DNA from: Escherichia coli O127:H6 str. E2348/69
Lineage (GTDB): Bacteria > Pseudomonadota > Gammaproteobacteria > Enterobacterales > Enterobacteriaceae
Length of the DNA stretch: 64,000 nt
Direction: 5' to 3' (one strand)
NCBI RefSeq assembly: GCF_000026545.1
Contig: NC_011601.1
A model generated the notes under the pieces. That model worked only from the letters and a program-made list of their open reading frames with translations. It did no database searches and had not been told where the DNA came from. The position numbers and the translations under genes were made by a program. Each line of letters starts with the position of its first letter. The first letter of the stretch is position 1. This document shows positions 26,645 through 30,088 of the stretch, one piece after another.

Positions 26645-27340
26645 GTGAGCGAAATTAAAGACGTTATTGTTCAGGGGTTGTGGAAAAACAACTCTGCGCT
26701 GGTCCAGCTGCTCGGCCTTTGTCCTCTGTTGGCGGTCACGTCCACTGCCACTAACGCTCTGGGTTTAGGACTTGCGACTACGCTGGTACTGACGCTAACC
26801 AACCTGACCATTTCGACGCTGCGTCACTGGACACCCGCCGAGATCCGCATTCCCATTTACGTGATGATCATCGCCTCGGTGGTCAGCGCTGTACAGATGC
26901 TGATCAACGCCTACGCCTTTGGCCTGTATCAATCATTAGGGATTTTTATTCCGCTGATTGTCACTAACTGTATCGTTGTGGGCCGCGCTGAAGCCTTCGC
27001 CGCCAAAAAAGGTCCGGCGCTTTCGGCACTGGACGGCTTTTCAATTGGTATGGGCGCAACCTGCGCCATGTTCGTGCTGGGTTCACTACGCGAAATTATC
27101 GGCAATGGCACGTTGTTTGACGGTGCAGATGCGCTGTTAGGTAGCTGGGCAAAAGTATTACGCGTGGAGATTTTCCACACCGACTCCCCTTTCCTGCTGG
27201 CGATGCTGCCACCAGGTGCATTTATTGGCCTGGGACTGATGCTGGCAGGAAAATACCTGATTGATGAAAAAATGAAAAAGCGCCGTACTGAAGCAGCTGC
27301 CGAACGTGCATTGCCAAACGGTGAAACAGGGAATGTCTGA
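26645..27340 (+). CDS. rsxE: Rnf-type complex subunit RsxE
   Basis: 231-aa membrane ORF. Confidence 0.95.
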
Positions 27341-27975
27341 TGAACAAAGCAAAACGCCTGGAGATCCTCACTCGCCTGCGTGAGAACAATCCTCATCCCA
27401 CCACCGAGCTTAATTTCAGTTCGCCTTTTGAATTGCTGATTGCCGTACTGCTTTCCGCTCAGGCGACCGATGTCAGTGTTAATAAGGCGACGGCGAAACT
27501 CTACCCGGTGGCTAATACGCCTGCAGCGATGCTTGAACTGGGCGTTGAAGGGGTGAAAACCTATATCAAAACGATTGGCCTTTATAACAGCAAAGCAGAA
27601 AATATCATCAAAACCTGCCGTATCTTACTGGAACAACATAATGGCGAGGTTCCGGAAGATCGTGCTGCGCTTGAAGCCCTGCCTGGTGTAGGTCGTAAAA
27701 CAGCCAACGTCGTATTAAACACTGCATTCGGCTGGCCGACTATTGCTGTCGACACGCACATTTTCCGCGTTTGCAATCGTACTCAATTTGCGCCGGGGAA
27801 AAACGTCGAACAGGTAGAAGAAAAGCTACTGAAAGTGGTTCCGGCAGAGTTTAAAGTCGACTGCCACCATTGGTTGATCCTGCACGGGCGTTATACCTGC
27901 ATTGCCCGCAAGCCTCGCTGTGGCTCTTGTATTATTGAAGATCTTTGTGAATACAAAGAGAAAGTTGACATCTAA
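27340..27975 (+). CDS. nth: endonuclease III (DNA glycosylase/AP lyase)
   Basis: 211 aa; C-terminal Cx6CxxCx5C iron-sulfur motif; start overlaps the rsxE stop. Confidence 0.96.
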   Translation: MNKAKRLEILTRLRENNPHPTTELNFSSPFELLIAVLLSAQATDVSVNKATAKLYPVANTPAAMLELGVEGVKTYIKTIGLYNSKAENIIKTCRILLEQHNGEVPEDRAALEALPGVGRKTANVVLNTAFGWPTIAVDTHIFRVCNRTQFAPGKNVEQVEEKLLKVVPAEFKVDCHHWLILHGRYTCIARKPRCGSCIIEDLCEYKEKVDI

Positions 27976-28585
27976 AGATCAGGGGTAACACCGATTACCC
28001 CATTCATAACCTTTCTTTATCCTCTTTTAAAACATCTTTTTAACGTCAATGATGCCATTGCTTAGCGTTATCATCAGGTAATCCGTTTGCAGATAACCAA
28101 AAATGCAGGTTAATTGTTTTTTTAATAGCGAAATTTTCTATTCATTCGTGATCAAGATCACGATGCTGTGGCAATGTAAAAACATTGCAAGAATCAGGTT
28201 AAAATCATTTAAATTTACACACGCAACAAATATTGACCTACAAAACATTACACTGGCTATTTTTCAGAAACTGGACTATCTCACTAGGAAAAACGCCAAA
28301 TAGTAGAACATATCGCCATTGAGCCATCATCACCCTCTCAGGGTAGTGAAAAAATCTGCCGTTACGTTTTTTGAAAAATTTAACGCTGGATAACATTTCC
28401 CGGAATGGTTGAATTCCCCGCCTCAGTTATATGTAACAGATTATTACAAAGGACTTGTCTGAAAGTGCAAGATAGTGAACATTACCTGCCGTTTCCCCTC
28501 CCACTATAACAATTGCGCGTATGTTTTTTAGGCATAACGCGAGAAAGCACCCCCGTTAATATGGGATGTAAAAAAAGAGGTAAAA

Positions 28586-30088
28586 GTGTCCACTGCAAAC
28601 CAAAAACCAACTGAAAGCGTCAGTTTGAACGCTTTCAAACAACCGAAGGCGTTCTATCTCATCTTCTCGATTGAGTTATGGGAACGTTTTGGTTATTACG
28701 GCCTACAAGGAATTATGGCTGTTTACCTGGTTAAACAACTGGGTATGTCTGAAGCGGATTCAATCACCCTTTTCTCTTCCTTTAGTGCCCTGGTTTATGG
28801 TCTGGTCGCTATCGGCGGCTGGTTAGGTGACAAGGTACTGGGTACTAAACGCGTAATTATGCTTGGCGCTATTGTGCTGGCGATTGGTTATGCTCTGGTT
28901 GCCTGGTCTGGTCACGACGCCGGTATCGTTTATATGGGTATGGCGGCTATTGCGGTCGGTAACGGCCTGTTTAAAGCTAACCCGTCTTCTCTGCTTTCTA
29001 CATGCTATGAGAAAAACGACCCGCGTCTGGACGGTGCATTCACCATGTACTACATGTCCGTCAACATCGGCTCTTTCTTCTCTATGATCGCCACCCCGTG
29101 GCTGGCCGCGAAATACGGCTGGAGTGTTGCGTTTGCGTTGAGCGTTGTAGGCCTGCTGATCACTATCGTTAACTTCGCCTTCTGCCAACGCTGGGTTAAA
29201 CAGTACGGTTCAAAACCAGACTTCGAGCCTATCAACTACCGTAACCTGCTGCTGACCATTATTGGTGTTGTGGCACTGATCGCTATCGCCACCTGGCTGC
29301 TGCACAATCAGGAAGTTGCGCGTATGGCGCTGGGCGTTGTTGCATTCGGTATTGTGGTTATCTTCGGTAAAGAAGCTTTCGCGATGAAAGGTGCTGCGCG
29401 TCGTAAAATGATCGTTGCCTTCATCCTGATGCTCGAAGCCATTATCTTCTTCGTGCTTTATAGCCAGATGCCAACGTCACTGAACTTCTTTGCGATTCGT
29501 AACGTTGAACACACCATTCTGGGCCTGGCCGTAGAACCTGAGCAGTATCAGGCACTGAACCCGTTCTGGATCATCATTGGTAGCCCGATTCTGGCCGCTA
29601 TCTATAACAAGATGGGCGATACCCTGCCAATGCCAACCAAGTTTGCTATCGGCATGGTGATGTGTTCTGGTGCGTTCCTGATTCTGCCGCTGGGTGCGAA
29701 ATTCGCGTCTGACGCTGGTATCGTGTCTGTAAGCTGGCTGGTCGCGAGCTATGGCCTGCAGAGTATCGGGGAACTGATGATCTCTGGCCTGGGTCTGGCA
29801 ATGGTTGCACAACTCGTTCCGCAGCGTCTGATGGGCTTCATTATGGGTAGCTGGTTCCTGACCACTGCCGGTGCAAACCTGATTGGTGGTTATGTTGCAG
29901 GTATGATGGCTGTGCCGGATAACGTTACCGATCCGCTGATGTCACTGGAAGTCTATGGTCGCGTATTCTTGCAGATTGGTGTCGCTACTGCCGTTATTGC
30001 AGTACTGATGCTGTTTACCGCGCCGAAACTGCACCGCATGACGCAGGATGACGCTGCAGACAAAGCGGCGAAAGCAGCCGTAGCGTAA
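28586..30088 (+). CDS. dtpA: proton-dependent di/tripeptide permease (POT family)
   Basis: 500-aa ORF, 12-14 TM, recognised sequence; long AT-rich 5' region. Confidence 0.95.

Follow-up and report, generated by a model that had tools for sequence, protein, structure and literature searches.

The stretch of DNA analyzed here, which we call the window, comprises 64,000 nucleotides from Escherichia coli O127:H6 str. E2348/69 (contig NC_011601.1). One segment of it carries the genes rsxG, rsxE, nth, dtpA, and gstA. The product of dtpA, a gene also known as tppB or ydgR, is the main proton-coupled importer of di- and tripeptides, and of peptidomimetic drugs, in E. coli. A first-pass annotation, made from the letters alone, had described two adjacent perfect palindromes in a 610-nt spacer between nth and dtpA. 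The gene context was right, and both palindromes are real, their sequences being found where they had been placed (Table 1). Palindrome 1 is longer than had been recognized, by 1 bp in each arm, with arms of 8 nt around a 2-nt center (TCGTGATC-aa-GATCACGA, positions 28146 to 28163), and palindrome 2 has arms of 7 nt around a 4-nt center. The complete spacer was present at 95 to 100% identity in 5,423 of 5,426 complete E. coli genomes, and a 71-nt segment holding both palindromes (28130 to 28200) was present at an identity of at least 95% in 5,422 of them.

Palindromes as such were common in this DNA. When the spacer was shuffled 2,000 times with its dinucleotide composition preserved, a mean of 0.52 perfect 7 + 7 palindromes with a gap of 0 to 6 nt was expected per shuffled spacer, and the whole 64-kb window contained 65 such palindromes compared to 33.6 ± 6.7 in shuffles. 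Two of them no more than 20 nt apart occurred in 0.5% of the spacer shuffles. Given how common palindromes are in the window, the unusual part is the adjacent pair.

Table 1. Features of the nth-dtpA region and control segments, in window coordinates
Feature	Position	Strand	Basis or remark
nth	27340-27975		Left border of the 610-nt spacer
Control: nth-proximal segment	27976-28103		36% identity to E. coli; 91 to 129 nt; 24 distinct lengths
Hairpin 3' of the nth stop codon, GGGGTAA-N6-TTACCCC	27982..28001	+	Sequence; surroundings poorly conserved in sequence and length; probable nth terminator
Distal-to-proximal dtpA regulatory module, fixed length	28104..28486	+	Alignment, 72 species
Conserved block upstream of the CRP site, CAGGTTAATnGTTTTTTT ... 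AAATTTCTAT	28104..28143	.	Conservation profile
cAMP-CRP binding site, 22-bp footprint frame	28144..28165	.	Matrix match, Footprint-seq, SELEX, orthologs
Position of the putative ancestral ArcA-type array, two to three TGTTA-like direct repeats, 11-bp spacing	28163..28191	+	ArcA matrix
Palindrome 2, GCAATGT-aaaa-ACATTGC	28171..28188	.	E. coli-specific symmetry
OmpR-type tandem 10-bp repeats, TGTAACAGAT TATTACAAAG, abutting the -35	28432..28451	+	Sequence; nearly invariant in orthologs; predicted site
Proximal dtpA promoter: -35 TTGTCT (28455-28460), 17-bp spacer, -10 AACATT (28478-28483)	28455..28483	+	Predicted hexamers
Control: 5' UTR	28487-28585		75% identity to E. coli; 94 to 101 nt; 8 distinct lengths
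dtpA (tppB/ydgR) CDS	28586..30088	+	Presumed regulated gene
Control: dtpA-gstA spacer			101 to 160 nt; 20 distinct lengths

We identify palindrome 1 as a high-affinity cAMP-CRP site, with in vitro binding documented twice in the literature. The core of the CRP site, cGTGA-TCAAGA-TCACg, is the palindrome itself, centered at 28154/28155, and two GATC Dam sites (28150 to 28153 and 28156 to 28159) lie inside it. A CRP matrix was derived from a 2026 Footprint-seq preprint, whose 39 "novel high-affinity" sites other than that of dtpA were used. Positions 28145 to 28164 scored 20.5 bits with this matrix, ranking first in the 64 kb, the training median being 16.8 bits. The second-ranking match, AGCGTGATATTGATCGCATT at 11325 to 11344 (18.1 bits), is found between uidR and uidA, with about 170 bp separating it from uidA, the beta-glucuronidase gene downstream. 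The uidA promoter is a classic case of CRP dependence, and the match presumably corresponds to the CRP site already known for this operon (uid). This runner-up served as a positive control, indicating that the matrix behaves as expected.

The binding itself is on record. Table 1 of the Footprint-seq preprint lists the exact sequence ttCGTGAtcaagaTCACGatg at MG1655 position 1712342, assigns it to dtpA, and gives an estimated Kd of 2.1 nM; the site is labeled novel there, meaning more than 500 bp from any catalogued site, and the authors regard intergenic CRP sites as mostly regulatory. Genomic SELEX had named tppB as a new cAMP-CRP target in 2011. Both binding data sets are in vitro, and our search of the literature found neither in vivo CRP occupancy nor crp-dependent expression of dtpA; the methylome literature likewise yielded no protected GATCs at the dtpA locus. 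The CRP site is an ordinary transcription factor site that is already in the literature. The only new point at this locus, and one that specialists might find surprising, is the rigid spacing described below.

A DtpA-based scan provided a comparison set of 80 species-level loci from about 20 genera of the Enterobacteriaceae, and nth lies directly upstream of dtpA in all 80. Conservation in such upstream regions had been proposed as a check on the palindromes, and palindrome 1 stood up to it, the TGTGA-N6-TCAC core of the CRP site being kept in most of these species. At the outer positions, most genera have T and A/T, which is nearer the consensus than the C and G of E. coli. The site has decayed in Kluyvera, Pseudocitrobacter, Superficieibacter, and several Kosakonia species. 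It is the left half-site that was lost in Kluyvera (loci L020-L022, L026, L027, L030, and L033) and in Pseudocitrobacter (L032 and L035), where the length of the module and the repeat array, both treated below, are kept. Kluyvera carries ATGTTGCATTTATGTTTC, which contains GTTGCATT, a sequence that we take to be the CytR octamer.

Palindrome 2 fared otherwise. The first-pass annotation had suggested that both palindromes might be sites for a dimeric regulator; for palindrome 1 this is borne out by the CRP match and the in vitro binding, whereas palindrome 2 received no support. Its symmetry is absent beyond E. coli, the very finding named in advance as speaking against it. Only the inner five pairs remain in E. 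albertii, E. whittamii and its relatives have a different palindrome with its center shifted by 1 base, and other genera have none. The sequence conserved at the site of palindrome 2 is ATGTTr-N6-TGTTr, often with TGATA 11 bp upstream, that is, direct repeats with an 11-bp spacing. No related copies of palindrome 2 beyond chance were present in the window.

The direct repeats resemble ArcA boxes. Using a matrix made from 115 ChIP-supported ArcA boxes (training range, 9.6 to 21 bits), we found that the best match fell in one alignment column (window position 28174) for 55 of the 70 species; for the other 15, it lay precisely 11 bp upstream of that column. The score was at least 10 bits in 57 of the 70 species, with a maximum of 20.8 bits in Klebsiella michiganensis; Klebsiella and Enterobacter sequences were among those at 15 to 21 bits. 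The mean score peaked sharply at that column, and none of 2,000 column-permuted matrices reached the observed mean. Scoring the opposite strand at the ortholog array position gave nothing. E. coli itself scored 8.0 bits (28174 to 28191) and 6.7 bits (28163 to 28180), the higher value being below all 115 training boxes, and none of the 176 regions in the K-12 ArcA ChIP data lies between fumA (1.686 Mb) and astC (1.830 Mb), so none is near dtpA. The simplest reading of these sequences is that an ancestral ArcA-type array, or that of a related response regulator with 11-bp repeats, degenerated in E. coli, and that palindrome 2 is a lineage-specific by-product. The ArcA assignment comes from the matrix match, and the array may belong instead to another response regulator recognizing 11-bp repeats, such as PhoP. 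The strongest ArcA matrix matches in the window, at 1935 to 1952 (minus strand, 17.0 bits) and 3732 to 3749 (minus strand, 16.8 bits), are the fumC and fumA boxes of the training table, the first with one base different and the second identical, so that the left end of the window holds fumC and fumA.

Published expression data touch on both ArcA and a second regulator. In an arcA mutant, tppB was 2.5-fold lower (Park 2013, PMC3798270), an effect that may be indirect. The same mutant showed ydcI up 15.9-fold and nhaA, gltP, and tppB/dtpA down 2- to 3-fold (Park 2013 Table S5), and these three genes have been reported as bound and "activated" by YdcI (Gao 2018). Since ydcI goes up and the YdcI-bound genes go down in the arcA mutant, the effect of ArcA on dtpA may be indirect via YdcI. 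YdcI may be a repressor rather than an activator of nhaA, gltP, and tppB/dtpA.

The proximal promoter of dtpA is known from the literature to depend on OmpR, being activated at low OmpR and repressed at high OmpR. A dtpA fragment spanning -201 to +15, which is without both palindromes, is already OmpR responsive and shows the repression at high OmpR, so that the distal region is unnecessary for basic regulation. A study of long-term stationary phase reported a recurrent A-to-T change at -108 from the dtpA ATG, "adjacent to the -10," with dtpA mRNA up about 23-fold; three of four populations acquired this identical up-mutation, a sign of strong selection on dtpA expression during starvation. 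The change maps to 28478 in the window and converts AACATT, which is identical in 30 of 30 species, to TACATT, 17 bp downstream of TTGTCT. This suggests that the real -10 is AACATT and not GATAGT just upstream. The start site would lie at about 28483 to 28491.

The position of this promoter bears on what the palindromes can be. They had been thought to lie, perhaps, in a long 5' UTR, a premise for which we found no support; only about 100 nt separate the mapped promoter from the start codon, and this promoter lies downstream of the palindromes, which are therefore upstream DNA, about 320 to 335 bp before the start site, and not leader. The impression that neither palindrome is an OmpR repeat was correct, judged by eye against the consensus: the conserved AC (GTTAC/GAAAC) at 10-bp spacing is missing from both. 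The ortholog repeats at the position of palindrome 2 are 11 bp apart, unlike the 10-bp OmpR units. Consensus sequences for OmpR, TyrR, Fur, Zur, LexA, PurR/LacI-type regulators, ArgR, CpxR, and matS were compared by eye, and none fit.

RNA structure, the other possibility raised by the first-pass annotation, did not hold up in the orthologs. Taken by itself, the E. coli sequence forms two hairpins (-15.7 kcal/mol, z = -3.1). Across 70 species, however, there was no covariation, and the proposed helices were paired in 61.5% of cells, the figure for shuffles being 60.6%. In helix 1, the outer pairs fail to form in 46 and 58 of the 70 species, respectively, and the only positions that "pair" are five belonging to the CRP half-sites, which is plain sequence conservation; for helix 2, 54% of cells are paired. 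Single sequences of the 383-nt module described below fold at about -75 to -88 kcal/mol, and its consensus fold came to -1.36 kcal/mol on the plus strand and -1.25 kcal/mol on the minus strand, with no compensatory pairs. A comparison with Rfam gave no match. The open reading frame at 28103 to 28303 had been called probably noncoding, and this was right: orthologs do not share its ATG, and the longest stretch that any frame keeps open in at least 90% of species is no more than 85 nt. This limit on shared frames also told against a minus-strand frame at 28238 to 28396, which overlaps conserved blocks and was rejected.

The CRP site, the array position, and the promoter are parts of a module of nearly constant length. 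The module is 383 bp long in E. coli, and in the 72 aligned species, from about 20 genera, it measures 382 nt in 64, 383 nt in 6, and 381 nt in 2. The distance from the center of the CRP site to the -10 anchor is 314 bp in 53 species, 315 bp in 7, and 313 bp in 1. Within the module, the 86-nt segment from 28155 to 28240 is only 39% identical to E. coli. Neighboring spacers differ far more in length, by tens of nucleotides (Table 1). The geometry is kept where the CRP site has decayed, and CRP therefore cannot be the sole reason for it. The module length is not explained by an open reading frame, by RNA structure, or by strong helical periodicity; an A/T dinucleotide periodicity at 10 to 10.5 bp, considered as a signature of wrapped or curved DNA, is visible and reaches only the 96th percentile of 383-bp windows in the 64 kb. 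Some spacers are much longer. The nth-dtpA spacer measures about 1,060 to 1,185 nt in Kosakonia (L044, L045, L051, L054-L056, L059, and L069) and Phytobacter (L081), with the eight Kosakonia loci carrying an extra 570 nt or so on the nth side of the module and keeping its geometry. The -10 anchor was not found in Phytobacter.

Other conserved sequence lies within the module. Highly conserved, gap-free blocks are present at 28241 to 28330 and 28345 to 28400, examples being ACACTGGCTATTTTTCAGA, CTATATCACT, AGCAGAACATATCGCC, AGTGAAAAAA, and GAAATTTAACGCTnnATAACATTT; on the minus strand, GAAATTTAACGCTnnATAACATTT can be read as TGTTA/CGTTA repeats with an 11-bp spacing. These blocks may be YdcI or GadX sites, or other sites reported by ChIP-exo. 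An Lrp-like 15-mer at 28126 to 28140 (minus strand) differs from the SELEX consensus YAGHAWATTWTDCTR at one position, the sole match of this quality in the window, where 0.59 would be expected by chance. It has no more than two mismatches in 20 of 30 species and is not significant on its own. A phased array of Lrp sites was not found.

We think it rather probable that the CRP site (palindrome 1) and the decayed ArcA-type array position (palindrome 2) belong to a distal control region of dtpA that acts at a distance. In such a region, palindrome 1 would bind a cAMP-CRP dimer, and both elements would act as DNA, with about 315 bp between them and the -10 region of the OmpR-dependent promoter downstream. 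Because this distance holds to within 1 bp while the intervening sequence diverges, CRP, joined outside E. coli by a repeat-binding response regulator, would most likely act on the proximal promoter from afar. CRP bends DNA sharply and could serve as an architectural element in a bent, looped, or wrapped nucleoprotein complex, with the distal sites keeping a set helical phase relative to the promoter. Peptide uptake would thereby be linked to carbon and redox status. We put forward only tentatively the more specific idea that the module may be held to ±1 bp because the CRP dimer and the adjacent array need about 30 helical turns to the promoter in a looped or wrapped complex. The location of the site near -330, well beyond the positions from which CRP normally activates, argues against long-range action by CRP.

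Comparison with known systems illustrates how the dtpA region both resembles and departs from them. In canonical CRP promoters, the site is at -61.5 (lac) or at -41.5 (galP1). The dtpA site shares with Class I and Class II sites a 22-bp twofold symmetric TGTGA-N6-TCACA, high affinity, A/T-rich flanks, and a location upstream of a transporter gene. However, it is centered about 328 to 335 bp upstream of the only mapped promoter, and no CRP-dependent start is known at -41.5 or -61.5 from it. Its center, at 28154.5, lies 315 bp upstream of the -10 anchor (28470), which agrees with none of the Class I/II spacings (-41.5, -61.5, -72.5, -82.5, and -92.5).

Another comparison is with papBA, where CRP at -215.5 is said to activate only with Lrp and in the correct helical phase. 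The dtpA region likewise has a far-upstream CRP site and GATC sites, and its strict spacing suggests phase dependence. The tppB gene is classically leucine inducible, and the Lrp-like 15-mer, 14 to 28 bp from the center of the CRP site, makes a link to Lrp possible. The distance at dtpA is about 100 bp longer, however, and dtpA is not known to undergo phase variation; Lrp binding and a CRP effect on transcription are only putative there. At ompF, the distal OmpR site F4 (-380 to -350) acts by looping. Similarly, dtpA has a distal site about 300 to 380 bp upstream of an OmpR-controlled promoter, and in both cases there is activation at low OmpR and repression at high OmpR. The distal repeats of dtpA differ from F4 in being of the 11-bp ArcA/PhoP type and not the 10-bp OmpR type, and its repression at high OmpR is seen with the -201 fragment, from which the distal region is missing.

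CytR and CRP together form nucleoprotein operators at deoP2, udp, and cdd. As in those operators, dtpA has a second site directly beside the CRP site, with TTGCA/GCAA in the arms of palindrome 2, but there is a single CRP site and not a tandem pair, and the half-site spacing is about 6 bp wider than CytR prefers. With respect to multi-repeat ArcA sites (Park et al. 2013, PMC3798270), most Enterobacteriaceae show the same arrangement at dtpA, with two to three TGTTA-like repeats at 11-bp spacing and scores of 10 to 21 bits. E. coli differs in its score of 8.0 bits and in having no ChIP peak, and the dtpA array is about 300 bp from the promoter and not over it. Other peptide and amino acid transporters are also under ArcA control, with ArcA ChIP regions reported at oppA, argT, cycA, and cstA.

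The main rival to action at a distance, and one that we consider unlikely, is that CRP drives an unannotated distal promoter, either a second dtpA promoter (P2) or that of a separate transcript, with a start about 40 to 60 bp downstream, the array or palindrome 2 as its operator, and a leader of about 370 to 400 nt. CRP sites beside response regulator repeats are usually at promoters, and the blocks downstream (28241 to 28400) are conserved. A -10-like TAAAAT is present at 28200 to 28205, but only in the Escherichia/Citrobacter/Salmonella clade, relatives having TAAATT, TAAAGT, or TACATT, so such a promoter would be clade restricted; used as a -10, it would put CRP near -57 to -59, off the usual -61.5 phase. 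Across the segment from 28165 to 28260, -10-like hexamers are position conserved in at most 37% of species, compared to 97 to 100% at the proximal promoter. A consensus promoter scan of the spacer, which missed the real, activator-dependent promoter too, shows no promoter-like site there, and the would-be leader is without conserved RNA structure.

Quite unlikely, in our estimation, is a reading in which palindrome 2 is an operator of the E. coli lineage for a dimeric regulator, whether CytR with the adjacent CRP, YdcI, or GadX. A perfect 7 + 7 palindrome 8 bp from a CRP site is striking given the rarity of adjacent pairs in shuffles, and the 71-nt segment is nearly invariant in E. coli, as given above; the symmetry is nonetheless lost within Escherichia itself (the outer pairs in E. 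albertii, the 1-nt shift of center in E. whittamii), and the window holds no related copies beyond chance. The TTGCA/GCAA motifs of the arms presumably resemble CytR half-sites. The spacing is atypical: compared by eye with the octamer GTTGCATT, the arms match at 5 to 6 of 8 positions, with a spacing wider than preferred and no conservation, and no data linking CytR to dtpA were found in the literature. YdcI and GadX have both been reported upstream of dtpA by ChIP-exo. The YdcI motif has inverted repeats 7 nt apart, however, which palindrome 2, being of even length, cannot match.

It is very unlikely that the CRP site is bound yet has no promoter-specific role, as one of many strong sites that bend or organize DNA. 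A position of about -330 that fits no standard activation class, and the loss of the site in several genera, would agree with this, but about 20 genera retain both the core and its exact distance to the promoter, and the site is intergenic, a location that the authors of the Footprint-seq preprint consider mostly regulatory. Finally, the idea that the palindromes fold as hairpins of a long dtpA leader transcript or of an unannotated small RNA, or are part of a small open reading frame (28103 to 28303), is effectively refuted, since the two hairpins of the E. coli single-sequence fold are countered by the absence of covariation, of an Rfam match, and of a shared open frame, and by the known promoter downstream.

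Returning to the distal control region that we favor, a nanomolar CRP site in a constrained module would add carbon-status control to the inputs of dtpA that depend on OmpR, GadX, YdcI, and ArcA. If true, this would be a case of long-range, phase-locked CRP action on an ordinary housekeeping transporter gene. The nth-ydgR spacer is among the most spacing-constrained noncoding regions around, and it is also routinely used in E. coli as a "safe," neutral landing pad for libraries of genomic reporters (Urtecho et al., bioRxiv 207332). Insertions at this landing pad likely uncouple dtpA from its distal control region and place the reporters beside a strong DNA-bending site.
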